Shown: in pieces, positions 1-48,197 of the stretch
Layout: every line of letters begins with the position of its first letter
How positions within the stretch are numbered: the first letter of the stretch is position 1
Source of the DNA: Dictyostelium discoideum
Taxonomy: Eukaryota
Length of the DNA stretch: 64,000 nucleotides
Assembly (NCBI GenBank): GCA_000004695.1
Contig: CM000151.3
Coordinates: 7,552,001-7,616,000 of the forward strand
Reading direction: 5' to 3'
Notes under the pieces: model-generated
Databases searched by the model: none
Told to the model about the DNA's origin: nothing
The model's input: only the letters and a program-made list of their open reading frames with translations
Program-made: the position numbers and the translations under genes

Positions 1-474
1 GATAATTCCGATGAATTTGGATATTTATTTTGTTCGTCAAATGATGATGATAGATCATATATTTTTATTGATTGAGCTTTTATTAATAATACAGAGTTTA
101 ATAATAAAAATAAAAATAAAAATAGAAATATCTTCATTTTGTATTTTTTATTACCAAACGGTTTATTATTTTTTTTTTTTTTTGTTTTACTTTTTTTTTT
201 TTTAATCAAAAATCATTTGATTAACAAAGGTCGCATGTAGAAAAAAAGAAAATATAAAAAATTAAAAAAAAAAATAAAAAAAAAAATAAAAAAAACCTCC
301 ATTTTGCAATAGACGAAAAAGATTTTTTATTCTGTTTTTGAAAAAAAAAAAAAAAAAGAGGAAAAATAAAATAAAAAAAAAGAAAGTATTAAAAAAAAAA
401 TAAAAAATTATCAATCCAAAAAAAAATCAATTAATAGGTGTTTTTGATCGAATTATATCTTCATATAATTTTAG

Positions 475-963
475 TAATTTTCAATCGAAATTATACTTTT
501 TTTAATTACAAAAAAGATCTCGTTACTCAATACTGGTGGTCGATTTTATAAAAATAAGCGAAGGGATCTCTTTAATTATGATGCCTTTCCAATCCAAATT
601 GAATCTGATAAAGTTTCTCATTTTAAAGTTTTTAATAATAGAACGAAAGAATTTATTAATGAATGTAAAGACTATTTCAAACTCTCTGATGATGAAAATG
701 TCTATTCAATTTGTCTTTATAAAAATCAATGCTCTTGTGGGTCAAAAAATAAAATATATTCATGCTGGAAAGTAAATTGTACTAATGGTATATGCCTGCA
801 ATGTATTAAAAAGTCTTCATTTGCTTCCAATTATTGTCTGTATACCTTTTTCAAAAAAAATTTTAAATATTGCATTCAATGTATTTCTGATTCAATCAAA
901 AATAAATCATGTATTATTTGGTGTTCAAAATCCTATTGAAGACATATACTATTCTAATTTACA
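475..963 (+). other. About 160-codon Met-less open reading frame, Cys-rich (...CSCGSKNKIYSCWKVNCTNGICLQCIKK...YCIQCISDS...CIIWCSKSY*). Possibly an internal or 3' exon of an unannotated gene.
   Basis: Frame 1 is open from the TAG at 472-474 to the TGA at about 961-963. The surrounding DNA is more than 80% A+T, where random ORFs are short. Cys spacing is regular. It is missing from the ORF track only because it has no ATG. Confidence 0.25.
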
Positions 964-1187
964 TTCAGACAATTCATTAAATTAATAAAAATAATAGATA
1001 TTTAAGTGTTATGAAGGAGGTTTTTTTTTTTATTTAAGTTTAATAAATTTAAATTAAAGCATGGAGATTTGTCACATTAATTTTTTATTTTTTTATTTTT
1101 TTTGGCTTGAATATTTTGTCGGCAAGCTGCCAAAATTTTTTGACAATCTGGTTTATTAATTCAAATTATTATTTCAATAATAATTAT

Positions 1188-1224
<37 letters not shown>

Positions 1225-1379
1225 ATCAATATTGTATCACTTTATTGTTTAAAATTTTAATTGATTTATTTATTCATTTTTTTTTTTTTCATGTTTTTTA
1301 TTTTATTTTATTTTATTTTATTTAGTTATTTATTTTTTTTTATTATTTATTTATTATTTTTTTTATTATTTATTTTTTT

Positions 1380-1462
1380 ATTTATTTATTTTTTAATTTA
1401 TTTATTTATTTTATTTATTTATTTATTTATTTATTAATTTATTTATATATTTATATATATAT

Positions 1463-1537
<75 letters not shown>

Positions 1538-1545
1538 TATATTTT
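1380..1545. repeat. (TTTA)n/(ATTT)n microsatellite
   Basis: Direct reading shows uninterrupted tttatttattta... units. Confidence 0.9.
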
Positions 1546-2121
1546 TTTATTTATCATTTATTTTTTTTTTAAAAGGAATATTAAATTTGAAAAACTTAAC
1601 CCAAAAAAAATAAAATAAAAAAAGAAATGGGAAAATTTAAAAAAAATGGTGAGAGAAAATTGAAAAAATCTAATTTTTGAGAATTATTAAAAAAAAAAAA
1701 AATAAAAAAAAATAAAATTTATTAATTATTGATTGTAATTCAAATAATAATAATTTTTAATTAATTTTTGACATCAATTTTAATGTAGAACAACGAATTC
1801 TTAAAAAAGGAAGATTTTTTTATAAATCTAATTTTTTATTATAAAACATAATAAAATAAAACATATTGCAAAAAAAAAAAAAAAAAAATAATTATAATAA
1901 TAAAAAAAATATGTAAATCAACATGGATATTATTTAGATATATATTTTTATAAAAAAAAATATTTAAAAAAAGAAAAAAAAAAAATTTTTCCAAAATAAA
2001 AAACAAAATGAATATCTTAATAGAATAAGAAACCCGTGCACAAAAAATAAAATAATGGACACATCTGACAAAAAAAAAATCCAAAAAAATAAAATAATTA
2101 AAAAAAGAAAAAAAAAAAATA

Positions 2122-2164
<43 letters not shown>

Positions 2165-2178
2165 AAAAGATTAATCAA

Positions 2179-2210
<32 letters not shown>

Positions 2211-2581
2211 AATTCTTGTATATATCTTAAAAAAAAGATTTATATCACCTTAAAATTCCTTGTGATTTAGTGGTCTAAAAATAATTTTACTATTAAAAAT
2301 TTTAGTATTTCCCCCTAAACCCTGATTCTCTTTAATCCAGAATACAAAATTGAGGCTAAAAATAAAAATTATTATAATATGATTACCCAATATGAAGAAA
2401 ATATATTATTGTGTAAAATCATTATATATCTAAAAAAAATAGATTTATAAATTGTCACAATATTATTATCGGAGCACTAAATCCAATTTCGTCACACTCT
2501 AATTTTAACATCAATTGATTTTTAGTACCCGATAAAAAGAAAAAAACCAAAAATCAAAGAGATCTAAAAATGGAATCAACA

Positions 2582-2615
<34 letters not shown>

Positions 2616-3132
2616 AAAAATCAAAAATCCAATTACTTGAATAATTTTTAATTTTTTCTAATTTTTTTCAATTTTTTTTCTTTTTGATCAATTTACAAAT
2701 CCCCACTAATTTATTAAAAAAAAAAAAAAAAAAAAATAGCCACCACACAACAACCCATTTAAATTTCAGCTCCACATTAATTTTAAGATTTATAATATTT
2801 TATATACAATTTTTTACATATAAAGCTATGTTCCTAATAAACACATTATCACACAGACCAAAATCTCTAAAAATAAGATTACGAAGTCATGAGTTAGTTT
2901 AATATATAGTTTTATAAATCTATTTTTTTTTTTTATTATAAATTTACTTTTTTTTTTTTCTTTTTATTTTACTTTTTATTATTTATTCAAATAAAGTAAA
3001 TAATTATATATAAATAAATAAAATAAATAAAATAAATAAATAAATAAAATAAATAAATAAAATAAATAAATAAATAAATAAATAAATAAACAATTATTTT
3101 ATAATAATAATAATAAATTATATTTAAATAAA

Positions 3133-5414
<2,282 letters not shown>

Positions 5415-5710
5415 TTAATTGTAATCTCGAAATTTGAGACTTTTTTTAAAAAATAATTTATTTCTTCACTATATCATTTTATCTGTTTCTGATATTTTTA
5501 AAATCCATATTATCTGTACAAAAATAATTTAAATATTAATAAAATAAAAAATAATTAATAATAATAACAATAAACAATTTGATAATGTTTTAAGTTGTTC
5601 TTTAATAATTAATTAATTTTAAGTGTTTAATATAATATATTTATTTTTATTTTTTTATTTTTTTTATTTTTTTATTTTTTATTTTGTATTTGATTATTAT
5701 AATTATTAAT

Positions 5711-6988
5711 TTAAGAAGCTGATGTATAGAAATATCTTGTTCTATAGACATTTAAATAGTTAATTAAAATATCAATTAATGTTTTAAAGATATGAATCTT
5801 TTTCAAAAAGTTTAAAAATTTGTTTAATAAACCATCACCAATAAACTTTTCATAGAATGGTGATCTAATTAAATAGAAAAAAAGTAATTTCTTTCTTCTA
5901 TTCAATTCTTTGGCTTCCAATAAGGTTAATCGTATTTTCTGTTTAAAATTTCCATATTCTGAAAATGATTTGCTTAATAATTCAGTAACTAATGATAAAA
6001 ACCATGGTTTCCAAGACTTTTTACCAAATATACAATATGAAACCCCTAAAAAATTATTAAAATAAAATAAATTAGTATATATGTGTGTGTCTTTTTATTT
6101 ATTTTTTAAATAATACATACAATAAATAACAGGTCTAAATATAAATAAAATCTCACCAATAGTTTTTGTATTATAATCTTTTGGTGGTGGAGGTGGTAAT
6201 AATTTAATTAATGTTGATTCGTTTTGTTGTAATTCTCTCTGTTGTTGATATAATAAATTATTTTCTTGGTTTACAATTCGTTGTTGTTCAAATATTTGAT
6301 CTGATAATGTTCTTCTATTATTATTATTATTATTATTATTATTAAAATTATCATCGTTTGTATTATTATTATTATTAATATTATTATTATCATTATTATT
6401 AATATTATTATTATTATTTATTGACATTGTTACAGCTGGTCTTTTATTTTGGAATTGTTTTTGTTGATTTCGATTATTTTCAAGTATTGTTTTTACATCT
6501 TTTGAAGGTACATAAAATGAATGATGTACCAACATATCACCATTTGTTTTAATTAATAGTTTTAAACGTAAAATTGCTTTTAATAATTCAATTATAAATA
6601 TTATCATCTTTTTAATATTATTATTACTATTATTGTTATTACTATTACTATCGTCATGTTGTTCTCCTTTTTTTGTTGCTAACATTTCAAAGAATAATTC
6701 TAAACTTTGCACTGTTGTAATCCAACGTAAAGTTGTTAAATAATAGGGTGGTGGTACTTTTTCACCATTTGATATTTTATCGATATTATTTGATAATAGA
6801 ATTCCTGATGACCTATAATCTAAATATGATTGCAATATATTTGCTACACTATAAAGACCTTCACTAAACAATTCAGAATCACCATATCTACCTGGTAAAA
6901 ATGTAATTAATGATTTTAATAATCCCAAATGATCACTATTCTCTAATAAAAATATTAAAATATTTGATTTTGGTTGTTTTGGAATCAT
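5711..6988 (-). CDS. pex16: Peroxisomal biogenesis factor 16 (PEX16) orthologue: complement(join(5711..6045,6121..6988))
   Basis: Blocks align to human PEX16: ELFSEGLYSVANIL, LTTLRWITTVQSLELFFEMLATKKG, IIELLKAILRLKLL, KKSWKPWFLSLVTELLSKS, ELNRRKKLLFFYLIRSPFYEKF, and the C-terminal ...YFY. The minus-strand intron runs GTATGT(6120)...TTTTTAG(6046), 75 bp. The phase-1 junction regenerates TGG (Trp) of the conserved SWKPW motif. Confidence 0.85.
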
Positions 6989-7646
6989 CTTTATTATTTT
7001 ATTATTTTTTTAATTTATTATTTTTTTAATTATTTTTTTTCGATTTTATTATTGTGTATATATATAAATATAGATATGATTTTTAAGTATGATGTAGAAA
7101 ACAATCTATTATGATTATATTTGGTTACAACAACAACAATAACAACAACAACAACAACAATAACAACAATAACAGACAACCAACCAAAATTATTCCAACT
7201 ATCTTTTGCAAAACAAAATCTGAAAACAAAAATTGAAAAAAAAAAATAAAAAATAAAAAATAAAAAAAAAATAAAAAAAAAAAAAATAAAAATTAATTTT
7301 TTTTTTTTAATTTTTTATTTTTCAAATTTAGGTTAAATTTAAATACACCAAGATACAAATAAAAACCCCTTAGAATCAGAAAAAAAATAAAAAATAAATA
7401 AAATAAAATAAAAATTAAATAAAAAATAAAAAGCGCGCGTGGATTCATTTAAATGAATAATTAAATATTTTTTTTTTTCTTATTAATATTTCACTTTCAT
7501 ACGATCATTACACTACCAATTATATACATAAAATTTATTTATTTAACTTTAATTATAAAATACAATAAAATACAAAAAAAAATAATTCAAATAAATAAAA
7601 ATAAATAAATAAAAGAAGAAAAAGAAAAAGAAAAAGAAAAAGAAAG

Positions 7647-7688
<42 letters not shown>

Positions 7689-7691
<3 letters not shown>

Positions 7692-10546
7692 CAATCTGAT
7701 ACGTTGACTGTACAAACTGTACCAAATACAACGAATGTAACGAATACTGAGCATTCAATGTTAGCAGTATGTATATTTATCACCCCCTTTCCTTTCATTT
7801 TTTATTAATTTAATAATAACAATTATAAAATAAACTAATAAATAAAAATTATAGAAAATTGAAGAAAATAGACATATTATTCAAACTATATGGGAAAAAC
7901 AAAATTTAGGTAAATTAACAGAATGTGAACAATTTCAAAAAAGATTACATAGTAATCTTTTATTATTAGCTCCATTAGCTGATCACCAACAAAATTATCA
8001 TGTAAGTGAAAAAAAAAAAAAAAAAACAAAAAAAGCAAAGCAAAGAGTTATACTAACTATGATTTTAATCAATTATTAATGAATAGAAACAACAACAAGC
8101 ATTACTACAGCAACAACAGCAACAACAACAAGCATTACTACAACAACAGCAACAATCACCAGTTACAAATGTAGCAACCAATACACCACCAACTTTACAA
8201 CACTCAATTTCATCACCATCACCAAATAATTTTAACAATAATAATAATGCAAATAATCAATTCCTTTCACCTAATAGTCCTCAAGTTGCAAAATCATCAC
8301 CTTCTCAAAACAATCCATCAACACCAATTGCCAATACTCCAACAACAACAACAACAACAGCCGCAACAACAGCCACAAACACTAATACGATGATGAGTGG
8401 AAGTAGTGGCGGAGTGGTATCACCAGTTTCAAATCAGCAACAACAACAATCGATTCAGTCACCATCACAACAATCAGTTGTACAAAGATCACCATCACAA
8501 TCATTAAATTCATCAGCATCGTCAATTCAAAGTTTACAAAATATTCAAAATACTCAAAATACAATTCAACAATTAACAAACTCTCTAACACAAGTTAAAA
8601 CTATAATTCAACAATATCAATCACAAAATCAACAAGTACCACAAGATGTAATCTCTAGATATCATGAATTCTATTCAATGTTGCAACAACAACAACAAAA
8701 CCTATTACAACAACAATCTTTATTACAACAGCAACAAGCTTTATTACAACAACAACAAGTTGGAAACCCAATGCAACAAAGTAATGATATGCAACCACAA
8801 ACACCACAACAAAATAATATGCAACAACAACAACAACCACAAACACCACAACAAACAAATATGCAACAACCTCAAACTCCACAACAAAATAGTATGCAAC
8901 CATCTCAACAACCAATTACTCAACAAGAATATCAACAAATTTATGATAAAATAGTATCAATGAGTTCACAGATATTATTGTGTAATCAAAATATACAAAA
9001 ATTACAAAGTGAATCCTATGATCCACACGTTTTACAAGGATTACAAAATCAAGTTGCAAATTTAGAGATTGCTCAAGCAAATAGTCTTAGATTCTTACCT
9101 CAACAATATCATGTCGTACTATTCCAACAACAACAGCAACAACAAGCCAATCAACAACAATTACAATTAATGCAAATTAAACAATCAAAGGAATATATGG
9201 TTTTAACACCTGCTCAACAATTAATTTATAATCAACAAATTCAACAAAATCATTACAATCAACAAGTTATACTGAGACAACAACAACAAAAATTAATGGC
9301 AATATTGGAACAACAAAATCAAATGATAGCACAACAACAACAACAACAACATCAAATGCATCAACAACATCAAATGCAACCACAGCAACAACAACAACAA
9401 CATCAAATGCATCAACAATCACCACAACAACCACAACAAATGGGAATGGGAGGTAACCCACCATCACTTGAAATGATATCACCAATGTCTGCTGTAATGA
9501 ATGGTGTAACTAGTCCAATGAATCAAGGGATGATGAGTAGTAATAATGGTATGCCAACAATAACAACATCATTATCTGCAATTTCTCCAACCTCACCAAT
9601 TGGTACAAATTTAAATATGTCCAATCCAACTACAACCACAGTAGCAAATGTCACCACCACCGCAGCCACTACCACCACTGCTTCATCATCTGGTAAAGAG
9701 GAGAAAGAAAAGAAAAAAGATAAAAAAGATAAAGATAAAGATAAGGATAAGGATGATGATGATAAAGAATCTAAAAAAGATAAAAAAGATAAGAAGGATA
9801 AAAAAGCAAGTAAAGAGAAAACTTCGCATTGGACATCCGAAGAACATAATAAATTTTTAGAAGCAGTTCAACAATTTGGTATTAAAGATTACCATGCCAT
9901 AGCTAAATTTGTTCAAACTAGAAATCATCATCAAGTTAGAACTCATGTAAATACTTATTTAAAAAATCAAAAGAAAGCTGAAGCTGCAACATCTTCAACT
10001 CAAGTTAGTACTCCACAACAACAATTACCAATAGTTGGTACTCCACAACAATCTGTTGGTACTCCACAACAACAACAACCACCAATTGAACAAACACCAC
10101 CACCACCACAACAACAACAACAACCACCACAATTAACACCAGAACAACAATTAGCTTCACAACAACAACAAGCAACATTACAATTTCAACAATATCAACA
10201 ACCACAAGATCAACAACAGCAACAATATCAACAATATCAACAATATGATCCTCAACAACAACAACAACAACCACAACAACAACCTCCACCACCACAAACC
10301 ACTCCCCCAAATAATGAAAATAATAATAATATTAATAATAATTTAGAAAACACTAATAATAACGATAATGGTAACAATAATAATAATGAATATAATAGTG
10401 GATTTGATTCAAATAGTGGGTTGAATGACGAGATGGGAATAGGATTATTTGGATCACCTGGTAATAATAGCAATAATAATTTAGGAATTTCCATTGAAGG
10501 TAATAATTTTGATGACAATCCATCAATCTCTTCCCCAGGTGTATAA
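7689..10546 (+). CDS. Q-rich transcription-regulator-like protein with an N-terminal SSXT/SNH (SYT N-terminal homology, GIF-like) domain and a C-terminal SHAQKYF-class Myb/SANT domain: join(7689..7766,7855..8001,8087..10546)
   Basis: Exon 2 encodes IQTIWEKQNLGKLTECEQFQKRLHSNLLLLAPLADHQQN, which is SNH-like. The Myb motif is WTSEEHNKFLEAVQQFGIKDYHAIAKFVQTRNHHQVRTHVNTYL. Donors GTATGT(7767) and GTAAGT(8002), acceptors tAG(7854) and aAG(8086). All phases are 0 and consistent with ORF 8390..10546. Confidence 0.75.
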
Positions 10547-10833
10547 AAATAAATAAAAAAATAAAAAAAATAAAAATAAAAAAAGAAATAGAAATAGAAA
10601 TAGAAAACAAAAAATAAATAAAACAGTAAGAAATTAAATTCAAAATCAAGAAATTGAATTCAATAAAAAAATTAAAATAAATTGCAATTCTTTTATTATT
10701 ATTATTTTTTTTTTTTTTTTTTTTTTTTTTAATGATATTTCTATTTCTATTTTTTTTTTTATATATTTTACTTTATTAATCAAAAAAAATTTTATTTTTT
10801 TATTTTTTTTCAAAAGCTTTTACTTTATTAATC

Positions 10834-10880
<47 letters not shown>

Positions 10881-11698
10881 AAAAAAAATTAAATAAAAAT
10901 AAAAATAGAAATAGAAATAAAAATAAAAATAAAAATAAAAATAAAAATAAAAATAAAAATAAAAATAAAAATGAAAATGGAATTAATTTTTTTTTTTTTT
11001 GGAATTCAACTCCAAGCTTAATCTAAAGAAAAAAAAAGACGTAATAAATATCCTTCTTCTATAAAAATCTGTGAGAAAATATGGAGTGGGTTCTGTGGGA
11101 AAAATTAAAAAAAATTTTGATGATTTGTTTCCAACCAGGATATTGTGTTCCAAAAGGAACCATCTTAATCTTATGGAATGCACAATACCAAAATATCAGG
11201 GTGTGAAAATTGATTTTTTTTCAATTTTTTTTTTTATTTTTTTTTTTTTATTTTTTTTTTTTTAGTTTTTTTTAACAGATTTGAACAATTTATTATATTT
11301 TTTTTTAGTTTTTTATTTTTTTTATACTAAAACATAAATCCTTTATGTTTGGGTAAGTTTCACATATGTAATAATATATATTATTATTTTTGAAAAAACA
11401 TTTTCTATTTTTTTTTATTTATTTTTTTATTTATTTTTATTCATTAAGTAGAGACTTCCCAAATTGGCAAAACTACAATTTAAATGATAATACTATAAAA
11501 AAAAAAAATAAATAAAAAAAAAAACAAATAAAAAAAGGAATAAAAAAAAAGGAATTAAGAACACCACATTTATTTTAAAGAAAGATGATAATTTTTAAAA
11601 AATTTTTTTTTTTTTTTAATAATTAAAAAAATAATGGTCCACCACACAATTTAATGTTTTTTTTATTTTTTTTATAAGTAATAAGATTTAATTGTTTT

Positions 11699-11742
<44 letters not shown>

Positions 11743-12057
11743 GTAGTTATAATAATAATAAATAAAAATTTATAAACTTAATTTCTGTTTTTTTTTATCT
11801 TTTTTATTCAACAGATTAATTTCATAAATTTTTTTTATTTTTTTTTTTTTATTTCATTTTTTTTATAATTCTTTCATTTTTTTTTATTTATTATTATTTA
11901 TTATTTAATAAAATAATAAACTAATAATAATATCCTTTTAAAAAAAAAAATAGATAATCAAAATAAAATCAATAAAAATAGCCACGAGGCATCAATTATT
12001 TTAACAGAGTTTGAATTAATTGAATTAAATACTGAAAAGATAGAAAATAATAAAAAT

Positions 12058-13770
12058 ATGACACCCAGAATTGAAAGTGAGGAATCTGCTCCTCTAGTAA
12101 ATAAAAACAACAACAATAATAACGATAATAATAATAATAATAATGTTGATGAAGAAAACCCTTTAATAATAGAAAGTGGTATTCCAATTGAAGATTTAGA
12201 ACAAAAAAATAAACCATATTTAATTAAAGTACCAAATATTGATAAACCAGATTCTGTAAGTTTTTATTTTTCATTTTTTTTTTTTTTTTTTTTATTAATA
12301 ATAATAATAATAATAAAAATTATTTATTAATTTTTTATTTCTTTTTTTTTTTTAATTAAAAAAAAGAAATGGATAAATTTTAAAACATTATGGGCATTTA
12401 CAGGACCAGGATTTTTAATGAGTATAGCATATTTAGATCCTGGTAATTTAGAGAGTGATATTCAAGCAGGAGCAATGGCAGGATATCAATTACTTTGGGT
12501 ATTATTTTGGTCAACAGTTATTGGATTTTGGTTACAAATGTTAGCATCAAGATTGGGTGTTGTAACAGGTAAACATTTAGCTGAACATTGTAGAGAACAA
12601 TATCCAAAGACACCAAGGCTATTGTTATGGTTAATGACAGAGTTGGCCATTATAGGTAGTGATATTCAAGAGGTTATCGGTACTGCGATTGCCTTGCAAA
12701 TCTTATCGAATGGACATATACCATTATGGGCTGGTGTATTATTCACTGCAGCTGATACATTCACATTTTTATTTTTAGAGAAATATGGTATTAGAAAGTT
12801 GGAGGCATTCTTTTGCTCCTTGATTGCAATCATGGCCATTTCTTTTGGTGTAGAATACATCATTAGCAAGCCCGACCAAATTGAGGTGGTAAAAGGTGTA
12901 TTCATACCATTATGCTCACAGAACAACATTTCCCAAGCTGTGGGTATCTTGGGGGCAGTTGTAATGCCACATAATATCTACTTACATAGCGCTTTGGTAC
13001 AGTCAAGAGAAATCGATAGAAAGAGTGAAACTCAAGTAAAAATCGCAAATAAATACAATCGTTTAGAATCTGCATTCGCATTGATCATCTCTTTTATTAT
13101 TAATCTATTATTGGTATCAGTTTTCGCTAAAGGATTCTATGGAGAAACTACAGAGATTGGGTTATCATCGGCTGCTGATTTCCTTATGGACAAGTATGGT
13201 AAGGTTGCAAAATACATTTGGGCAATCGGTTTATTTAGTGCTGGTCAATGCTCGACTATGACAGGTACCTATAGTGGTCAATTTGTAATGGAAGGTTTCT
13301 TAAAATTAAAAATCGCACCTTGGAAAAGATTATTAATCACCCGTTGTACCGCTATCGTTCCTGCTATGGTTGTTGCTATATTATCGACTTCTCATTTGGA
13401 TTCTTTAGATCAATGGTTAAACATTTTGCAAAGTATTCAATTACCCTTTGCAGTGGTACCTGTATTATTATTTACAAGCTCTGAGAAAATTATGGGTTCA
13501 AAATTTAAAAATCATTGGTTAAATAATCAATTTGTTAGATTTTTATCACTATTAATCATTGCAATCAACATTTATTTAATTATCACTTTCTCAATGCAAA
13601 TCTCTGAATCAGCTTGGATGATTTCAATAGTTTCAATATCTTTCTTTTTTTATTTCATTTTCATAGTTTATTTATCAATGGGTCAAGAAAACTTTAATTC
13701 TATGACTAAAAAAATCAAAAATTTATTTAATAATAATTCAAATCAAACTTATAATAATATTAATTATTAA
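12058..13770 (+). CDS. nramp1: Nramp (SLC11) divalent metal transporter Nramp1: join(12058..12255,12367..13770), 533 aa
   Basis: Has the DPGN motif and a FTGPGFLMSIAYLDPGNLESDIQAGA... consensus, with long conserved transmembrane blocks. Donor GTAAGT at 12256, acceptor aAG at 12366. Predicted length of 533 aa equals the length reported for Dictyostelium Nramp1. Confidence 0.9.
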
Positions 13771-14478
13771 TAATTTTTTTTTTTTTTATTTAATTGATAA
13801 AAAAAAAAAAATTAAAATATTAAAATAAATAAATAATAATAATAAATATATAACTTTTTTTTTTTTTCTATTCAAATAATTATCTTTTTTTAATTTTTTT
13901 CTATTCAAATACACTAATAATTAATTTTTTTTTTTTTTTATATTTTAAATCTTTATTTTTTTTTTTTTTTATATTTTAAAATCTTTATTTTTATTTTTTA
14001 ATTAAATAAATCTTTTAAAAAGTTGATAGTAATTGTTTTATTTGTTTTTTTTTTTTTTTTTTTTTTTGTTAATAATTTATATTTTTTTGTGAAGTGACAC
14101 ATATTATCTTTTAAAAGAAGCATTAATAATTAAATTATATTTTTTTTTTAAAAAAAACAAGTGGATATAAAAAGTTTTTTTTTTTTTATTAATAAAATCA
14201 AAAAAACAAACAAATATATTTTAACAACTAAATAAAATATTAAATATATTATTAAAAAAAAGAAAAAAAAAAGTTTATAAAAAAAAAAAAAAAAAAACAA
14301 ATATAGTTTAAAAAAAAGAAATTTTCAATTAATTTTAAAAATAAAAAAATAAAATGAAAATTTTAAATTTAATTCTAATTCTTGCAATTTTAAATATTGT
14401 AATTGAATTTTCAAATGCAAGATCAAATGATAAAGAGAAATGTAGTTTAAAATTTATCCAGGAATTTCAAATGATGGT

Positions 14479-36266: not shown

Positions 36267-36516
36267 ATGGCAACAATCTTTGATATTTTAAATACTCTTA
36301 ATAATAATAATTTTGAAAATTGTAAAAGACAATGCTCAACCAATAAAAGCAATAAAACAATTATTGATATACTACCACCAATGGATGTAACAATTACAAA
36401 TGATAAACTAATCATTGAAACAGAGTTAGCAGGTATTTCAAAAGATCAAATTGAAATTGACATTAAAGATTCAATACTCACTATTCAAGGTGAAAGAAAA
36501 GATTTAAATAAACAAC

Positions 36517-36554
<38 letters not shown>

Positions 36555-36916
36555 TTAGTTATAGAAAAATCAACATCAACATCATCAACTTTTAGATAGA
36601 AAAGAAGATGAAGCATCAATTGAAGAAGTTTGAAGATGATATTAAACCAAAATCAAAATCTGACAACAGAACTGTATCTACTACAACCACCGCTACTAAA
36701 GAGAATAAAGAAGATGAAAATAAAACAAAATCAAGTGATAAAAAGTTTATTTCAGAAAGATCATTTGGTAATTTTAAAAGATATTTAGATTTAACAAAAG
36801 TTTTATATCAATTAGATTTATATTCAATCAATACTCAATTTGAAAATGGTTTATTAACAATTACAATCAATAAGAAATTACATTATTCAAATACAATTAA
36901 AATTAATATAAATTAA
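36267..36916 (+). pseudogene. Small heat-shock protein (hspG-like), array copy G, frameshifted
   Basis: Split into ORFs 36267..36599 and 36608..36916. Indels relative to the other copies include a 'tcaacatcaacatcatcaactttt' insertion and 'gaagaagtttg' with an extra 'a'. Confidence 0.7.
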
Positions 36917-37218
36917 CCAGTGACCACTTTTATTTTCCCTTCTTTATAATTCTGGAAATACATGTACATAATAATAAATAATAATACATTTAATAAAATA
37001 ATAAAATAAATACTTTTTGTAAAAACTTTAAAATAAATATGAAATTAATTTTTTCCTTTTTATGATTTTCTTTTTAAACTCTTTGATATGTATATATAAG
37101 TAATTATGAAAAAAATTTAAATTTATTTGATATGATTTTAAGACACGTATTAATTATAAACATCAAACTACAAATAGGGTTTTTTATTATATATATAAAA
37201 AAATTGTTGAAATTTTAT

Positions 37219-39516
37219 TTATTTGTTAATTTTTTTTAACTTGTTTAAAAGAACACTTTCACCTTTTTTACGATAAATTAAAAAACCAATTGCACCAATT
37301 GCGGAAACACCAACAACACTTGCAACTACAGCGACTGGGATAACATAACTTTTTCTTCCATCTTTTGAATTACCACATTCATTTTTAAATTCTGGACTAA
37401 TTAAGACTGAGAAATCTGGATCAATGATACAAGATTCAATGCAATGTGGTAAATCTAATGAAATTGAAATTGAATCCTTACTTTCATTTTTCATTGAAGT
37501 TAATAAATATGTTGGTCTTCCGTCTGAAACTAACTTGTTTATAAATCTTCCTTCTAAAATTTTATTATTTTTTGAAATTTTAATATAATTGAAAGTAGAT
37601 TCACCATCTTTATTATTGATTGTATTAATTGATGTATCCATTTCATTACATTCATTATCATCTGAATTTATTTGATCTACTGATGAAACTAATTCTAATT
37701 TTAAAGTATTTAAGTTATTTTTGTATGAATAGTTATAAATTCCAATACTAAATTTAATTGAACCATATTGTAAATTAAATGTTTCATCTGCAAATGTATA
37801 TTCTTTACCATTTCTGTTTGTAATTTCTTCAATCTTTGAAATAATTGAGCAATTGCTTTGAATTGTTTGAGATAATGTGTAAATAATTTCATTTTTGCTG
37901 TTTGTTGAATTTGTTGTCCAATTGTTTCGAAGAGAATATGTTGCTACTATATTACCATTAAAATCAATTTCGTATAATGATTTGAAAAAGATTTGGAATT
38001 GAACTTCTTGATTTGAAATTGTTGTATTACCAGTACCTGGATCGACACCAGTATCAGTTGGTGGGTTTCCGTTATTACCTCCATCGCTATCGCTATTGCT
38101 TCCTCCGTTATTACCTCCGCCTGGATTAATGATACCACTACAATCTGCACCATTGAATCCATTATTACATTTACATTGACCATTTAAAGTATTGCATGTA
38201 CCTTGATTTGAACATTTATTTGGACATGTTTGGTTATTAATATTTAAATATTGATATTTATCATAAGAGTATGTAATGTTATTTTGAGTTACAACTACAA
38301 GCTTTACACCAAAACCTGGAGGTGCTGTACAATTTAAAACTGTTGTTGAATTATATAGTAATGGACATGGTAAATTTCCAATTGTGATTGATAGATTATT
38401 ATGAGTATCACCAAAGAAGCCAATAAAGCTTGCAACACCACCATTGGTTGTTGAAGGTATTGTTGAAGTTATATAATGGTATGGTATTAAACAAGTTGGA
38501 CCTGACCAAGAATTTTCTTTACAATTGCATTCACCTTTAGTTGTGTCACATACACCATTTGAATTACAATCTAGTGGATCACACTCAATAAATAATATTG
38601 AACAATCACTACCTCGATGAGATGAATCACAAATACATTCACCTATGGTAGTATTGCAATAACCATTACCTGAACAATCTGGAACTGAACATTCAATACC
38701 TAAGCAATCACTACCTATAAATCCTGGTAAACATTTACAAGTACCTGAACTTAAATCGCAAATTGAATTAACTCCAACTGATGTTGAACAATCATTTGGA
38801 CAAACTTGATTATTATCGAAATTTGATTCGATCTTAATATATGCTTTTACATTGAATGAATCTTTTTCAATTGAAATTATTTGTAATGGAATTGTTGAAT
38901 TTGAAATTGGTAATTGTTTACCACTTTCCATTGTACATTGTGCTCCGAAAAAGTCACTACTTGTAATTGTTGAACAATTACCTACATTTTGAATTTGAAC
39001 TTGTTGATTTGTAAATCCTAAATAACTTGAAAAATGTGTACCACTTACTTGAATTTCATTACCTGTGCTTTTAATTAAAACTGATTTTATAATTGGTGGA
39101 ATATTATAATTTGTTGGGAATGTATATGTAACATTATTTGGAGTTGTGAATAAAACTGGAAAATATTCAACATTTTTCAAATTATTATTAGCTCCTACCA
39201 TTGTTGCTGTATAATTTTTACCATTTTGATTAATAACATATGTTGTTGGATCTAATGAAATTGTTAAATTAATTTTCCATAATGTTACATCGAATCCAAT
39301 ATCATTACCAGTTACCATTACTTTATTAAATATACCATCATTAATTAATTCTACTTTTGGTCTAAATGTTGTGCATGGTGTATTTGTATTAAAGTTTGAA
39401 AACTTATTACTAGCAAATCTTGAAAACATTGATTTTTGTGTTAATTTTGAATAACTATTTACTGTTGTTACATTAAAATAACATGCAAAACAAGATGGAA
39501 CTAATCTGAATATTTG

Positions 39517-39583
<67 letters not shown>

Positions 39584-41090
39584 ATTAATAAAAATAAGAA
39601 TTATGATAATAAAGAAATAATAATTAAAACCATACCCTGTTAAATTTCCCAGTGAAACAGCTATTTCAGTTGTGCACCATGATTTATCAATTGTGCCAGT
39701 AAATTTGGTTGTTCCTGTAAAATCAAATGAACCACCAGAACCTAAAAAAGGAGGGAATTGTTCACTTTTTATTGAATTTTGAAAATTTGTTGTAATATCT
39801 GGATTAAAATTTAGATTGTTTGGGAAAACTGTTAAATAACCTCCTATAAAGGATATTTCAATATTCTTTGGAACAATTAAGGGAAATGATCCATTGATAT
39901 TAAATGATGTCCCAGGAACCAATGTAATGGATTTATAAGTGTGGTTTTTAAATAATGTTATATCAAAGAATTCCTTTGGTTTCTTGAATATTGCTGAAAC
40001 ATATATATAAGGAATAATAGAATTATCAAATATATATTGATCTAATGTAGCATTTTGATTGAATGTATCATAGATTGTTAGCATTCCTGATTGATCAGTA
40101 ATTTGTAATTTCTTTAAAAATGAAATAGTTGAGTAATCAAATCTTGGAGAAATTTTAAATGTAACACCTCTTAATTTTTTATAACTTGATAAATCTGATA
40201 TACTATTCAAAGAAATTCTAAAATTTGTTAAGATTGATGATTCATCTGAATTTGCTCCATCTGTATTTAAATAATAATAACTATCAGATGAAAACATATT
40301 TAATGAATATGTAACTTTATCTAAATACTGCATTCTAAATATTGTATTATTTAAGTCATCGCTAAATAATTCACTTAAAATTATTTATTTTTGAAAAAAT
40401 TAAAATTATTTTAATATTATATATATATATATCTATGTATTAACATATAAAACAAAAATTATATTTTACATTAATCTATATGCAGGTAGAGGTTGTGTAA
40501 TTCCACCTAATATTCCAGAAATATTTGAATACCTTACTGTATTGGCAGCTGGAAATTTGTAATATATAAAATTTGGGGTCACTTTTAAATTTTTAACTAT
40601 TCTAAAATTATTATTTAATTACTATTAATATATTTTTTGGAATTATTTTTGACTAAAAAAAAAAAAAAAAACATACAATTCATCCATTTGAGGAAAGCAA
40701 TTTACAAAATTTAATGGGTCTAATATATTATCTGTTCCACCACTATTCAAAGCTAATCTAAAAAAAAAATAAAAAAAAAAAAAAAATAAAAAATTATTAG
40801 TTAATAATTTAAAAAAATCTAATTATTATATTTTAAATAAAAAAAATGAAATAAAAATAATTAATTTACGTTTTAATATTTAGATTGGTCGTGCAAACTA
40901 TATCAGTATTAGCGGTTGTACATATATCAACATATTGGTTATTGGTATCTTTGGTGAATTTTAAAAGGTTATAATCTTGTATCAATGTTGACAAACAATT
41001 ATATTCACTCGGAATAGGATTGACTGATAAACAACCAATAAAATTTAAAAATATTAAAAAAAGTAGTAATTTAAATTTTAACGAAATCAT
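37219..41090 (-). CDS. Type-I transmembrane glycoprotein with a signal peptide, a large N-terminal extracellular region, tandem EGF/laminin-EGF-like Cys repeats and a single C-terminal transmembrane helix. Five exons: complement(join(37219..39505,39636..40373,40470..40601,40677..40757,40870..41090)), about 1152 aa
   Basis: The signal peptide is MISLKFKLLLFLIFLNFIGC. The EGF-like units are CxCxxxxxGxDC. The transmembrane segment is YVIPVAVVASVVGVSAIGAIGFLIYRKKG. Minus-strand donors GTAAAT(40869), GTATGT(40676), GTAAAA(40469) and GTATGG(39635), with the corresponding AG acceptors, give a total of 3459 nt in frame. Confidence 0.65.
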
Positions 41091-41643
41091 TTTATTTGTT
41101 ATATAATGAAACGAATTAAAAAAAAAAAAAAAATCAAAAAATTTAGAAAGAAACTTGCTGAAAATGTTCATTGTTTTTTTTTCTTTTTTTTTTAAAAAAT
41201 ATCTGAAAAAATCTCCTATGTTGACGTTTTGTGTATTTTTTTTTTTTTTTTTTTCTCTGAAACAAATTGTTATTTTTTTTTTTTTTTTTAAAAACCATGT
41301 GTTTTTATTAAAGTTTTTTTTTTTTTTTTTTTTTTTTAGATATTTTCTAAAAATATCTTTTTTTTTTGACGATTTTGTTTCTGATAAGGGTGATTGGATG
41401 TACAAAAAATTTAAGCATTAAATTGGTGAAAAGTAATTTTATGTGGCTCTGGTGGGTTTGTCGCCTTTTTTTTTTTTTTTACTTTTATTTTTTTATTTTC
41501 TATGAGACTACCCTTAATTAGTTTCTGATCAGGACCTTTTTTTTAAGACACGTATTAATTATAAACATCAAACTACAAATAGGGTTTTTTATTATATATA
41601 AAAAAAAATTGATGAGAAAATTAAAAAATTGTTGAAATTTTAT

Positions 41644-44600
41644 TTATTTGTTAATTTTTTTTAACTTGTTTAAAAGAACACTTTCACCTTTTTTACGATA
41701 AATTAAAAAACCAATTGCACCAATTGCGGAAACACCAACAACACTTGCAACTACAGCGACTGGGATAACATAACTTTTTCTTCCATCTTTTGAATTACCA
41801 CATTCATTTTTAAATTCTGGACTAATTAAGACTGAGAAATCTGGATCAATGATACAAGATTCAATGCAATGTGGTAAATCTAATGAAATTGAAATTGAAT
41901 CCTTACTTTCATTTTTCATTGAAGTTATTAAATATGTTGGTCTTCCGTCTGAAACTAACTTGTTTATAAATCTTCCTTCTAAAATTTTATTATTTTTTGA
42001 AATTTTAATATAGTTGAAAGTAGATTCACCATCTTTATTATTGATTGTATTAATTGATGTATCCATTTCATTACATTCATTATCATCTGAATTTATTTGA
42101 TCTACTGATGAAACTAATTCTAATTTTAAAGTATTTAAATTATTTTTGTATGAATAGTTATGAATTCCAATACTAAATTTAATTGAACCATATTGTAAAT
42201 TAAATGTTTCATCTGCAAATGTATATTCTTTACCATTTCTGTTTGTAATTTCTTCAATCTTTGAAATAATTGAGCAATTGCTTTGAATTGTTTGAGATAA
42301 TGTGTAAATAATTTCATTTTCGGTATCTGTTGAGTTTGTTGTCCAACTGTTTTGAAGAGAATATGTTGCTACTATATTACCATTAAAATCAATTTCGTAT
42401 AATGATTTGAAAAAGATTTGGAATTGAACTTCTTGATTTGAAATTGTTGTATTACCAGTACCTGGATCGACACCAGTATCAGTTGGTGGGTTTCCGTTAT
42501 TACCTCCATCGCTATCGCTATTGCTTCCTCCGTTATTACCTCCGCCTGGATTAATGATACCACTACAATCTGCACCATTGAATCCATTATTACATTTACA
42601 TTGACCATTTAAAGTATTGCATGTACCTTGATTTGAACATTTATTTGGACATGTTTGATTGTTAATATTTAAATATTGATATTTATTATAAGAGTATGTA
42701 ATGTTATTTTGAGCTACAACTACAAGCTTTACACCAAAACCTGGAGGTGCTGTACAATTTAAAACTGTTGTTGAATTATATAGTAATGGACATGGTAAAT
42801 TTCCAATTGTGATTGATAGATTATTATGAGTATCACCAAAGAAGCCAATAAAGCTTGCAACACCACCATTGGTTGTTGAAGGTATTGTTGAAGTTATATA
42901 ATGGTATGGTATTAAACAAGTTGGACCTGACCAAGAATTTTCTTTACAATTGCATTCACCTTTAATTGTATCACACACACCGTTTGAATTACAATCTACT
43001 GGATCACAATCAATATATGGTAATGAACAGTCACTACCTTGATTTGAAGGTCCACAATCACAAGTACCAGTTTGATTATTACATGTATTTAAACCACCAT
43101 TACATGCTACCCCAGTAGTCATTGGACATTCAACAAATGGTACTGAGCAATCATTTCCTTGGTGAGATGAATCACAATTACAAATACCAGTTTCATTATT
43201 ACATGTATTTAAACCACCATTGCATGGTAATCCATTAGATTCTGGACAATCAATTACTGGTAATGAGCAATCACTTCCTTGGTGAGATGAATCACAATTA
43301 CAAGTACCAGTTTGATTATTACATGTATTTAAACCACCATTACATGGCAATCCATTAGATGTTGGGCAATCAATTACTGGCAATGAGCAATCACTACCTT
43401 GATTTGAAGGTCCACAATCACAAGTACCAGTTTGATTATTACATGTATTTAAACCACCGTTACATGGTAATGAACTGAATATTGGACATGGAACCAATGG
43501 CAATGAGCAATTACTTCCTTGAAACGATGAGCTACAATTACAAGTACCAGTTTGGTTATTACATGTATTTAAACCACCGTTACATGGTAATCCACTAACT
43601 ATTGGGCATTCAATCAATGGTAATGAGCAATCACTTCCTTGGTGAGATGAATCACAACCACAAGTACCAGTTTGATTATTACAAGTGTTTAGACCGCCGT
43701 TACATGGTAATCCACTAACAATTGGGCATTCAATCAATGGTAATGAGCAATCATTTCCTTGGTGAGATGAATCACAACCACAAGTACCAGTTTTATTATT
43801 ACAAGTGTTTAAACCACCGTTACATGGTAATCCACTAACTATTGGGCATTCAATCAATGGTAATGAGCAATCATTTCCTTGGTGAGATGAATCACAAGTA
43901 CAAATACCAGTTTGATTATTACAAGTATTTGAGCCGCCATTACATGGTAAAGAGCCATAAATTGGACAAGGAATGAGTGGTAATAAACAATCGCTACCTT
44001 GATAAGATGAATTACAAATACATTCACCTATGGTATAATCACAATGACCATTACCTGAACAATCTGGAACTGAACATTCAATACCTAAACAATCACTACC
44101 AACAAATCCTGGTAAACATTTACAAGCACCTGAACTTAAATCGCAAATTGAATTAACTCCAACTGATGTTGAACAATCATTTGGACAAACTTGATTATTA
44201 TCGAAATTTGATTCGATCTTAATATATGCTTTTACATTGAATGAATCTTTTTCAATTGAAATTATTTGTAATGGAATTGTTGAATTTGAAATTGGTAATT
44301 GTTTACCACTTTCCATTGTACATTGTGCTCCGAAAAAGTCACTACTTGTAATTGTTGAACAATTACCTACATTTTGAATTTGAACTTGTTGATTTGTAAA
44401 TCCTAAATAACTTGAAAAATGTGTACCACTTACTTGAATTTCATTACCTGTGCTTTTAATTAAAACTGATTTTATAATTGGTGGAATATTATAATTTGTT
44501 GGGAATGTATATGTAACATTATTTGGAGTTGTGAATAAAACTGGAAAATATTCAACATTTTTCAAATTATTATTAGCTCCTACCATTGTTGCTGTATAAT

Positions 44601-46450
44601 TTTTACCATTTTGATTAATAACATATGTTGTTGGATCTAATGAAATTGTTAAATTAATTTTCCATAATGTTACATCGAATCCAATATCATTACCAGTTAC
44701 CATTACTTTATTAAATATACCATCATTAATTAATTCTACTTTTGGTCTAAATGTTGTGCATGGTGTTTTTGTATTAAAGTTTGAAAACTTATTACCAGAA
44801 AATCTTGTCAACATTGATTTTTGTGTTAATTTTGAATAACTATTTATCGTTGTTACATTAAAATAACACGCAAAACAAGATGGAATTAATCTAAATTTTT
44901 AAATTAATAAAAAAAAATAAAGATTAGTAAGTAATTTGAATAAATAAATAATTTATAATCAACATACCCTGTTAAATTTCCAGTTGGGACAGATAGTTCA
45001 GTTGTGCACCATGAATTATCAACTGTACCAACAAAAAGATTTGGAGAATTTGTAAAATAATATGAACCACCAGAACCTAGAAATTTTGTGGGGAATTGTG
45101 TATTTTTTATTGAATTAAAGAAGGAAACTGTAGAATATGGACCCATATTAAGGTTATTTGGAAAAACCGTCAAGTTACCTGATAAAAAATTAAAATCACA
45201 ACTCTCTGGAGGAATTATTGGGAGTGCCCCATTCAAATGATAAAGATTTCCTGGAAAAAGGGTAATTGCTGTATAGGTGTGATTAACGAATGATGACATA
45301 TCATAATATTCAGTTGGTGCATCAAGTGTCGCACTTAGATAAAATTTTGATACTTTTGAATTGTCAAATAAATATTGATTAATTTGTCCAAGAGCACGGT
45401 ATATTGATAATTGATTGGATGATATTGTTTTCATAAAATTAATAGTTGAAAAATCAAATATTAGAGAAAATTGTAAATTTATATTGTTTAATTTGTACAT
45501 TGAAAAAGATACTATGTTATGTACATTGGCATAAAAATTCCCTAATACTGAGGTTCCAGATGGATTTGCGCCATCAGAGTTTAGATAAACATATACATTA
45601 GCAGGAGAAATGTCCAAATTATATATTCCACTATTAATATGCTCCAATCTCAATGTTGTACCATTTAAATCATTTGAATGTATAGTCCTTTTTATTTTTA
45701 AAATAAAAAAAAATAAAAAAAATAAAAAAAATAAAAAAATAAATAAATGAATAAAATTTATGTAAGAAATAAGAATTAGATTTTAGTTTTTTTTTTTTTT
45801 TTGTTTTTTTTTTTTTTATAGAAAATAAATATTTACAAGGATCTAATTGAAGGTAAAGGTTGAGTAATTCCACCTACCACTCCATTAATATTGATATACT
45901 TTGCTATTTGGACACTGGATATTTTTGTATATATAAAATCTGGTGATACTTTTAAATTATTAACCGTTCTTTAATAATAATAATTTTCAATTTTTTAGTA
46001 AATAATTTTGTTGAGAAAAAAAAAAAAAAAAAATTTAAAATACTTACAATTCCACCATCAGAGTAAAACAGGTTGAGAAATTAGATGGAAATAATATATT
46101 ATTTGTACCACCAGGTATTAAAAACCATCCTAAAAATAAAAAAATAAAAAAATAAAAATTTAATATTTATTAGTTTTGATATTAAATTAAAAAAAAAAAT
46201 TAAAAAATTAAAAAATTAAAATTAAACTTATTTCTTTTGAATATAAATTCCCAGAACAAGAAATATCAATTGTGGTGGTTGACAAATGTTTGAATAAAAA
46301 TCGAATGTGTCTTTTGTGAAATTTGGTAGAATAAAAATTTCATTTAAATAACCAACACGTATATTCATCTGGAACAAGAGGGGGGACTTGAGAATAACAC
46401 CCGACAATTATTAAAAATATAAAAAAAAGTTGAGATTTAATTAAAACCAT
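41644..46450 (-). CDS. Tandem paralog of the preceding EGF-repeat membrane glycoprotein, with an expanded EGF-repeat array. Exons: complement(join(41644..44890,44968..45687,45837..45968,46047..46128,~46226..46450)). The 5' exon is apparently disrupted.
   Basis: The last exon (ORF 41644..44814) is open back to the acceptor at 44891. The splice sites were mapped as for gene 1. Exon 1 contains an in-frame TGA and a short out-of-frame stretch relative to the paralog (see findings). Confidence 0.5.
42985..43990 (-). repeat. Tandem in-frame repeat of about 120 bp (40 aa), about 8 units, inside the last exon of the second EGF-repeat gene; absent from the first paralog
   Basis: Repeated protein unit: LPLIECPIVSGLPCNGGLNTCNN(Q/K)TGTC(G/N)CDSSHQGNDCS. 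The nucleotide units are more than 85% identical: 'caatcacttccttggtgagatgaatcacaa..acaagtaccagtttgattattacatgtatttaaaccaccattacatgg...'. Confidence 0.8.
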
Positions 46451-46465
46451 TTTTTTTAATTATTG

Positions 46466-46517
<52 letters not shown>

Positions 46518-48197
46518 TAAAAAAAAAAAAAAAAAAAACCTTTCTAATATTCAGATGACTTTTTAATATTGATTAAAAAAAAAAAAAAAAAAAAAAAACC
46601 TGTTACATTGGGATGACGAAAAAAAAAAAAAAATAAAAAAAAAATAAAATTAATTGGTGAAGTGTTGTCTGGTTTTTGAATGGTTGGTTTTTAAAAAAAA
46701 ACGAAGAAAAATGCATTTTTTTTTATTAAATGTCAAAATATCTTTAAAAATATCTTTTTTTCATTTGATTTCGTCGATGATGTTTTGATTTTTTTTTTTT
46801 GTGCGTCAAAACGATCGTTCTTTTTTTTTTCCAAGCATTTCATAGAACGATTGTTTTTGTAAATTGGTATTTTTTTTTTTTTATTTTATTTTAAACGAAT
46901 ATGAACCAGTTTAAAAATTTCCTTTGATACCACCTGTTGACTGTTGTTTTTTTTTTTAAAAAAAAAAAAGATATTTTTTTTTTTCCATTATTTTCAATAT
47001 TAATTCTTAAAATATTTTTTTTTTTTTTTTTTTTTTTATTATTATTGAAAACTAAATAAAAGAGTATTTAATTTTTGGGGGAAACTTATATTTTTTTTTT
47101 TTTTTTTTTTTTTTTCCAAACAAAAATATTTTTTCCTAAAAAATCAAAAATTTTTAATAATTTGAAAATTTCCCCAAATTTTTTTTTTACAAATTTCCCG
47201 GGGGAAAAACCAAAGTATAACAATTTTTCGGGTATAGTATGGGGAGTTCCCCAAACTTTCCCCCCAATTAAATTTTTCCTAGTAAATCCTTTTTTCTAAA
47301 AAAAAAAAAAAAACCCAAAATTTTGCTTTGGGAAATTAATTTTTTAAAAAGTTTTATTTTAGTATCACTATTATTTTTAAGTTTTCTAAACAAAAGGGTT
47401 GTATTTTTATCCTTTTTAAAAATATTGGTTTTTTTTTTTTTTTTTTTTTTTTTTGATCAAATTTTTTTTTTTCTTGTTTTTTTAACCAAAAAAAAAAATA
47501 AAAAAAAAAAAATAAAAAATAAAAAATAAAAAAAATGGATTTTTTTTTTTTTAATTAAAATCTTTTTAAATTGATTCAACTTATTGCTTGGTGATTAAAT
47601 TAGATTATTTCGCAATTATTTTCTAGTATTGAAAATTAATTTTAATTTTTTATACTTTTTAAAAAAAAACAAAAAAAAAAAAAATAAATTAAAATTATTT
47701 TCAATTGATTTTTGGGGGTATAAATATCTTTTTTTAATTAGACACACATTTCAAAACATAAATGGCATCTTAAAAAAAAAAAAATAATAAAAATAATAAA
47801 AAAAATAAAACTCTAATTCGCAATAATCCTCCTATTTCAATATTAATATAACATAATAATACAAGCTTATTTTTAGTTTTTTTAATATAACCTTAGTAAT
47901 AAAAAAAAAAAAAAGATATTTTTAATAAAAAAAAAATCTAAATTTATTTTTTTATTTTTTTTATTTATTTTTTTATTTTTTAAAGGTGGGTCTGTTAATT
48001 TTTTTTTTTTTTTGAAAATAATTAAACAATAAAAACACTTTTTTTTATTTTTTATTTTTTTTAAATTAATTACAACAAAAAAAAATAAAAAATAAAAAAA
48101 AAAAAAAAAGAAAAATTCGAACCCCTTTTATCTTTTGAAAGTAAATTAAAAAAAAAAAGTGTTTATTTTTAACTATAGCATTAACCTTTTTTAAAAA

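Follow-up and report, generated by a model that had tools for sequence, protein, structure and literature searches.

Introduction

Partial gene conversion between related genes has its textbook cases in the primate gamma-globin genes and the opsin arrays, and adhesins have reportedly been found with intragenic tandem repeats of variable number. In Dictyostelium, ComC is said to act in a cell-adhesion and communication pathway with lagC and lagD. The comC product carries EGF domains along with a signal peptide and a transmembrane (TM) segment, and its conservation is limited to group 4 dictyostelids (PMC4931340); the comC mutant shows aberrant aggregation (PMC2873529). Here we analyse two tandem genes, A (DDB_G0276959) and B (DDB_G0277127), on the minus strand of chromosome 2 of D. 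discoideum AX4. They lie in a stretch of 64,000 nucleotides (assembly GCA_000004695.1, contig CM000151.3, positions 7,552,001 to 7,616,000; G+C 20%), which is called the window below; coordinates given without another source are positions in it. An earlier note, made from the letters of the window, had drawn attention to the pair.

Comparison of the sequences makes it very probable that A and B are tandem ComC paralogues in which exon 5 has been homogenised by repeated conversion, with heads that diverge and an array of EGF modules in B that changes in unit number. Both genes are already in the public annotation, and conversion and repeat turnover are well-known processes; what is new is their documentation for this particular pair and a correction of the B gene model. 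A literature search on both gene identifiers found no paper mentioning either, nor any expression, localisation or mutant data. Searches on Dictyostelium gene conversion and EGF, on comC with lagC/lagD and on the new species names likewise gave no paper dealing with either gene or with the new assemblies.

Two tandem genes with the domains of the ComC family

Spliced models of A and B were built by hand, and all introns are GT-AG and 75-149 nt long. The genes and the principal domains of A are as follows.

41090-37219, minus strand: gene A; spliced model without stops, 3459 nt, 1152 aa
41090-40870, 40757-40677, 40601-40470, 40373-39636 and 39505-37219, minus strand: exons 1-5 of A, with GT-AG introns
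39375-39118, minus strand: beta-sandwich 1 of A
39096-38812, minus strand: beta-sandwich 2 of A
38061-37402, minus strand: ComC supersandwich domain of A
46450-41644, minus strand: gene B; intact form 1465 aa, with eight extra EGF units
46450-46228, 46129-46048, 45968-45837, 45687-44968 and 44890-41644, minus strand: exons 1-5 of B, with GT-AG introns

The earlier note had the gene coordinates and the five-exon layout right, and the same layout was found, by exact protein-to-genome mapping, in six homologues from three other assemblies. The product of A is 100% identical to XP_642990/Q86KF0. It is without the 40-aa EGF array described below and is predicted to be a ComC-family type I membrane protein, running from a signal peptide through an LRR head (exons 2-4), two beta-sandwiches, three EGF modules, a TIG-like module, a further EGF module (EGF4), a Gly/Asn/Ser linker and the supersandwich domain to the TM segment and a 17-aa tail. 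Hydrophobic 19-mers are confined in A to residues 1-9 (signal peptide) and 1110-1117 (TM), and in B to the equivalent places. There are 24 N-x-S/T sequons in A and 33 in B. A tblastn search of the 64-kb window returned A, B and one short fragment only, and no third full paralogue.

The family, which had been left open, was placed by the Pfam comparison that the earlier note had proposed. All four ComC-specific Pfam families score above their gathering thresholds in both A and B. LRR_ComC (PF24141) matches A with E = 4.7e-43 and 148 bits (cut-off 27) over positions 3-284 of its 288-position profile, and B with 3.8e-39. The profiles of Beta-sand_ComC_1st (PF24142; A 1.8e-24, B 2.3e-24) and Beta-sand_ComC_2nd (PF24143; A 1.7e-23, B 2.2e-23) are matched over their full length, and the membrane-proximal ComC_SSD (PF22933) gives 6.9e-80 for A (profile positions 1-222 of 222) and 2.1e-79 for B. 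Matches to EGF_2, EGF_Teneurin and EGF_TEN complete the set, which is the same in the two genes, and B falls in the DDB_G0277127 cluster. Pfam TIG (PF01833) had no match in A or B at E ≤ 0.01; the module that follows the EGF cluster is TIG-like by eye only, and PF01833 is carried by a distant homologue, P0010.

An exhaustive HMMER search with the EGF-free head against 1.84 billion representative proteins returned only 29 clusters. Every source looked up belongs to the genus Dictyostelium, and all clusters but those of the orthologues are at most 35% identical. Since the heads of A and B have only ~25-35% identity to all other clusters of the family, the two form a ComC subfamily of their own. 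ComC itself was not identifiable among the matches, where every cluster member with a name is called either 'hypothetical' or 'EGF-like domain-containing protein'. On these domain assignments, A and B are type I membrane proteins of a Dictyostelium-only ComC family, and by analogy with ComC they may act in cell-cell adhesion or communication.

Exon 5 is near-identical within genomes and differs between them

The two genes consist of parts with very different levels of identity. In the list below, 'converted' and 'unconverted' anticipate the interpretation argued in this section.

39636-41090, minus strand: unconverted part of A (exons 1-4 and introns 1-3; signal peptide and LRR_ComC head); partner in B 44968-46450
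38601-39505, minus strand: exon 5 of A, 5' converted block, coding for both ComC beta-sandwiches and EGF1-2; partner in B 43986-44890
38592-38661, minus strand: junction zone in A adjoining the array position, which stays A-type and where conversion tracts break
37136-38593, minus strand: 3' converted block in A (rest of exon 5 and ~85 nt of 3' untranslated region, UTR); partner in B 41541-43018

Over exons 1-4, A and B share 48.9% protein identity, close to the earlier estimate of about 50%, with a synonymous divergence (dS) of 0.81 and a ratio of non-synonymous to synonymous divergence (dN/dS) of 0.52. The exon-by-exon comparison, also suggested in the earlier note, gave a dS in exon 5 of only 0.024 before the array position and 0.032 after it, with identities of 97.6-98.4%. 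A fall in dS from 0.81 to 0.024-0.032 cannot be explained by constraint at the protein level. The 5' converted block has 22 mismatches in 905 nt (97.6% identity). The 3' converted block, which comprises the last EGF of the cluster, the TIG-like module, EGF4, the Gly/Asn/Ser linker, ComC_SSD, the TM segment and the tail, has 22 in 1375 coding nt, so that the two AX4 genes differ at 44 exon-5 positions, besides a 20-nt indel in the UTR.

These values extend what the earlier note had proposed. Its virtually identical 1.3 kb at the 3' end is borne out (19 mismatches in 1342 nt, 98.6%), as is the suggestion of gene conversion, but the near-identity, and with it the converted region, takes in the whole of exon 5 and not just a 3' half. 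The shared 3' flank is also real (37136-37210 against 41541-41615, 97% identity), although the string quoted for it starts at 37141 and 41546 and not at 41541. At the other edge, the rise in identity falls in the 124 nt of exon 5 that directly follow intron 4. The promoters show no homogenisation, with only ~66% low-complexity similarity linking 41091-41540 to 46451-47100. Intron 4 of A contains, at the 5' edge of the converted region (39521-39581), a stretch of 61 A residues (T on the coding strand), which is 30 nt shorter in a near-identical assembly.

The mismatches between the AX4 copies are not evenly spread. A run of 639 nt in the 5' converted block (39381-38743) is without any difference between A and B, and the probability of such a run is about 2e-5. 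The clustering thus indicates a mosaic of tracts of different ages.

The same B-A tandem is present in GCA_054883475.1, GCA_054859385.1 and GCA_054859235.1, which allowed paralogues and orthologues to be compared directly. Seven genomic genes were aligned: AX4-type A and B, ACTFIR A and B, and ACTFIZ A and B with a third copy, C. ACTFIR B, whose model has extra or atypical junctions, was used in the DNA alignment and in unit counts only and not for dN/dS. In a sliding profile over three genomes, exon 5 is 98-100% identical between paralogues within a genome and 92-98% identical between orthologues of different genomes. For exons 1-4 the relation is reversed, with 56-79% for paralogues and 87-97% for orthologues. 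Sites that group the genes one way or the other were counted for three genome pairs.

Exon 5: grouping by genome at 58, 88 and 101 sites; by orthology at 14, 11 and 11 sites
Exons 1-4 with introns: grouping by genome at 0, 3 and 4 sites; by orthology at 384, 284 and 280 sites

The by-genome sites are spread throughout the 5' converted block of exon 5, and in every comparison the exon-5 dS of paralogues (0.02-0.05) is below that of orthologues (0.07-0.24). A fourth lineage, D. dimigraforme, has two tandem copies with identical exon-5 products. Because exon-5 sites group the paralogues by genome, homogenisation must have occurred independently, after the lineages split. The heads have evolved rather fast over the same period, with dN/dS of 0.4-0.9 for the LRR heads overall and 0.93 for the B head between AX4 and ACTFIZ.

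The exon-5 sites that do follow orthology are informative in their own way: 13 of 14 lie at 38661-38592, beside the array position. As the remaining orthology-type sites adjoin the position where B carries 960 bp more than A, this heterology splits the converted region in two.

A further exchange can be seen at the 3' end. A of AX4 carries a B-type tail, RKKGESVLLNKLKKINK, together with the UTR of B, whilst the A orthologues and ACTFIZ copy C end ...RRKINKNFLVKLKQLNNIK. In AX4 alone, the 3' tract passes the stop codon and continues ~85 nt into the UTR, and A-type flank resumes at ~37135. Since the A orthologues and copy C are A-type, and AX4 A is B-type and then returns to A-type flank, the tail event ran from B to A. 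Past the end of the tract, at ~37100-37135, the 3' UTR of A keeps ATCAAATAAATTTAAATTTTTTTCATAATTAC, which in the A orthologues holds the original A-type stop (…NNIK*). Read against the orthologues, this stretch of UTR is a footprint of the replaced C terminus. Taken as a whole, the patterns support an exchange of exon 5 between A and B by gene conversion, with concerted evolution after the lineage split.

An EGF array of varying unit number in gene B

The second difference between the genes lies within exon 5.

43986-43027, minus strand: in-frame tandem array of 8 x 120 bp, in B only, absent from A

B exceeds A by exactly 960 nt, or eight units of 120, each of which is a 40-aa six-cysteine EGF-like module; the earlier description of about 1 kb of in-frame, cysteine-rich 40-aa repeats in the upstream copy alone was accurate. 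Tandem Repeats Finder reports the array at 43010-43950 (period 120, 7.8 copies, 86% matches, score 1203), and its Pfam scores are 95 bits for EGF_2 and 84 bits for EGF_TEN. In the first EGF cluster, it separates the second module from the last. The units are 69-96% identical in DNA, and the pairs 2/3 (96%) and 6/7 (92%) are by this measure recent duplicates. The number of units in homologues ranges from 0 to 10.

A orthologue in five D. discoideum-complex genomes: 0 units
D. firmibasis, single gene at the locus: 1 unit
ACTFIZ copy C: 2 units
D. dimigraforme, each of two copies: 5 units
D. citrinum: 7 units
B in AX4, ACTFIZ and ACTFIY: 8 units
B in ACTFIR: 10 units

Equal counts do not imply equal arrays. 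B of AX4 and B of ACTFIZ both have eight units, of which only units 1, 4, 5 and 8 have one-to-one counterparts, and the ACTFIR array contains a two-unit duplication. Conserved edges with a changing interior are as produced by unequal exchange or slippage within the array. The repeat-number instability proposed in the earlier note therefore holds among homologues, but it is seen between lineages that have diverged by 5-10% and not between near-identical strains: the arrays of the window and of GCA_054883475.1 are identical, which is weak evidence, coming from one close pair. It suggests that the rate of array change is not high on a laboratory timescale.

Integrity of gene B

In the window, B is not an open reading frame, which the earlier note had missed. 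Codon 37 is a TGA (46342-46340), and in exon 1 the homology to A moves from frame 0 to frame 1 and back to frame 0, that is, through two frameshifts. The public AX4 model of B (DDB_G0277127, XP_642991) skips around the damage and, at 1387 aa, is 78 residues short. The window was compared over 15 kb with the corresponding locus, L001, of the recent D. discoideum assembly GCA_054883475.1. Apart from B, proteins of this assembly are identical to their AX4 counterparts, so it comes from an AX4-type strain. Apart from two patches, the 15 kb differ by 5 substitutions and by length differences in homopolymer and simple-repeat runs, and both genes match L001 base for base outside the patches and the A/T runs.

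46100-46370, minus strand: suspect base-call patch 1 (end of B exon 1, intron 1 and start of exon 2); 23 substitutions and 6 indels against L001; contains the TGA and the frameshifts
47070-47540: suspect base-call patch 2 (intergenic, upstream of B); 51 substitutions against L001

If the TGA and the frameshifts were real mutations, B would be a genuine pseudogene in AX4. They do stand in the window, the annotators were forced into an odd 1387-aa model, and the sign of smeared runs is not clear-cut in patch 1, where the base is the same as a neighbour at 18 of 23 sites in the window and at 16 of 23 in L001. We nevertheless consider a pseudogene improbable. The 29 differences of patch 1 fall within 270 bp, compared with 5 substitutions across the remaining 14 kb. 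The remaining 4.2 kb of B are stop-free and identical in both assemblies, and the exon 1 of L001 agrees with the orthologues in ACTFIR, ACTFIZ and ACTFIY. Moreover, the second patch, 700 bp away, bears an unmistakable signature of base-calling error, with the window base repeating its neighbour in 50 of 51 substitutions and the L001 base in 5 of 51. This patch, in which for example GGGGGGAAAGTTTGGGG stands in the window against GGAGGTAATGTTTGAG, appears to reflect smeared base calls in the reference and not a mutation spectrum. As the almost identical newer assembly encodes an intact 1465-aa B, the stop and frameshifts in exon 1 are most likely base-call errors of the reference, and the public 1387-aa model is most likely wrong. 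DDB_G0277127 would thus have been given a false stop, and its public model, short of 78 residues, would mislead users in expression studies, proteomics or knockout design.

Alternative origins of the exon-5 identity

Exon 5 could have been copied only once, in an ancestor, or a chimera could have been formed by one unequal crossover, with no continuing exchange. Such an event would equally give a sharp identity boundary at intron 4. It predicts, however, that exon 5 should group by orthology, whereas 58-101 sites group by genome, and it does not fit paralogues that are closer in dS than orthologues throughout, a tail replacement limited to the AX4 lineage, or clustered mismatches that point to tracts of several ages. 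We regard a single event as very unlikely.

The earlier note had itself named an assembly duplication as what would undo its reading. The AX4 reference does contain two nearby patches of clustered errors, and reads used twice or a mis-joined duplication could in principle make 3' halves identical. This has practically no probability left: the B-A tandem and its exon structure recur in three independent assemblies, the AX4 copies are told apart by 44 exon-5 differences and the UTR indel, and the window equals L001 over both genes outside the patches and A/T runs. Stronger purifying selection on exon 5 than on the head, for which the lower dN/dS after the array (0.13-0.32, against 0.4-0.9 in the head) would speak, has next to no chance of being the sole cause, as it does not remove synonymous differences, of which dS drops 25- to 34-fold, and can neither make ~85 nt of 3' UTR 97% identical nor create sites that group by genome.

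Repeated conversion of exon 5 between A and B is thus left as the preferred interpretation, and several points weigh against it. Recombination is not directly observable from sequence, and unequal crossing-over between the tandem genes could add to the homogenisation. The genomes used for comparison differ by 5-10% over the entire locus. The function suggested for A and B is taken from their family membership. Finally, the stop in B stands in the window and, if real, would make B a pseudogene in AX4.

Copy number and neighbourhood of the locus

The syntenic interval, between a fatty-acid-hydroxylase-like gene and an HSP20 gene cluster, contains a single ComC-type gene in D. firmibasis and likewise in D. 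citrinum. AX4, ACTFIR and D. dimigraforme each have two such genes there, and D. cf. discoideum ACTFIZ has three (B-A-C). The following loci were behind this comparison.

L003 (GCA_054859235.1), 340-14006
L004
L005
L006, 10001-19857

The D. dimigraforme annotation merges the two tandem genes into one 2628-aa protein. In each of L001-L006, what follows the ComC-type genes is an HSP20 cluster of variable size (from 1 copy to 5 or more) together with genes for GNAT acetyltransferases, and the whole neighbourhood seems prone to tandem duplication. In the window, an HSP20-type small heat-shock gene (36267-36916, plus strand) is convergent with A and is split into open reading frames at 36267-36599 and 36608-36916. 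It is a single frame of 216 codons in the near-identical assembly, the split being due to several 1-nt indels near an AAC repeat (36495-36627).

An orphan inverted fragment was found upstream of B, on the plus strand at ~47100-47315 of the window (9140-9353 of L001). It is 78% identical to the region of B from intron 2 through exon 3 to intron 3, and in L001 an open, exon-3-like frame of 44 codons is kept, IINNLKISPDFIYTNIQCERAKYNNISGIVCGVTQTLPPIRYI. The surrounding 500 bp give a 69% alignment to the corresponding position in ACTFIR. The fragment looks like what is left of a further ComC-type copy that was oriented the other way.

Hyper-polymorphism of the kind associated with tgrB1/tgrC1, which the 3-8% difference between AX4 and ACTFIR orthologues had suggested, was considered and rejected, since divergence is no lower in the flanking genes and intergenic DNA (7.4 kb, 90.5% identity).

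Proposed mechanism and significance

The following sequence of events would account for the data. The A/B duplication is old, given a dS of about 0.8 in exons 1-4. Since then A and B would have repeatedly swapped their last exon by non-reciprocal recombination, an exchange that would keep the stalk, the domains next to the membrane and the TM segment at 98% identity, and in AX4 the tail as well. The LRR heads evolve separately and rather fast. Conversion tracts would stop at intron 4 on one side and break at the array heterology, and the array itself would change by unequal exchange or slippage between units, with interior units being duplicated or lost.

The products of A and B would be anchored in the plasma membrane, with the LRR head at the outer end. 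An EGF module is roughly 2-3 nm long, and the eight extra modules of B may lengthen the rod and hold its head further from the membrane. With heads only 49% identical and evolving at a dN/dS of 0.4-0.9, we infer that A and B bind different partners, and the shared stalk, TM segment and tail may couple both heads to the same machinery. An extended interpretation is that the pair or triplet forms a modular recognition system, in which heads are diversified by selection, a common stalk, TM segment and tail is maintained by conversion, which would connect every copy to one downstream partner, and array length sets how far a head reaches over the gap between cells. We think this unlikely. If it were true, the 0-10 EGF modules would tune which cell-cell contacts form in aggregation, and the locus would offer, in a simple multicellular organism, a natural allelic series for receptor height against adhesion or signalling. 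A and B point to an uncharacterised ComC subfamily in which close relatives differ in the number of genes (1-3) and in the length of the stalk (0-10 EGF units).

Comparison with known systems

The closest relatives are the ComC proteins. A and B share with them all four domains in the same order, as well as EGF modules, a signal peptide and one TM segment. They differ in their heads, with only ~25-35% identity to all other clusters of the family, and in phenotype, as the comC mutant has one and neither A nor B has a described one.

The Tgr proteins (tgrB1/tgrC1, formerly lagB/lagC) are similar to A and B in being type I membrane proteins encoded by adjacent gene pairs and in having fast-evolving extracellular parts. 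However, Tgr proteins are built from IPT/TIG repeats, whereas A and B have the ComC domain set, and the divergence of A and B is no higher than that of the flanking genes.

The arrangement of the array resembles that in the yeast FLO and Candida ALS adhesins, where an in-frame array also stands between an N-terminal binding domain and a membrane or wall anchor, unit number varies among homologues, and the interior turns over between conserved edges. The units of the A/B family differ from those of the adhesins in being folded, disulphide-bonded EGF modules rather than Ser/Thr-rich low-complexity repeats, and there is no length change between the two near-identical AX4-type assemblies.

With partial gene conversion of tandem paralogues as known elsewhere, the locus has in common a bounded tract, paralogues within a genome that are closer than orthologues, homogenised synonymous and non-coding sites, and a mosaic of tracts. 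It differs in what the tract covers, namely the exon for the stalk, TM segment and tail, with the ligand-facing head spared, and in the splitting of the tract by a 960-bp indel, A being array-free in all five D. discoideum-complex genomes examined. The pair provides a clean and sharply bounded case of partial concerted evolution, in which the ligand-facing half of a membrane protein diverges and the membrane-anchoring half is kept uniform.

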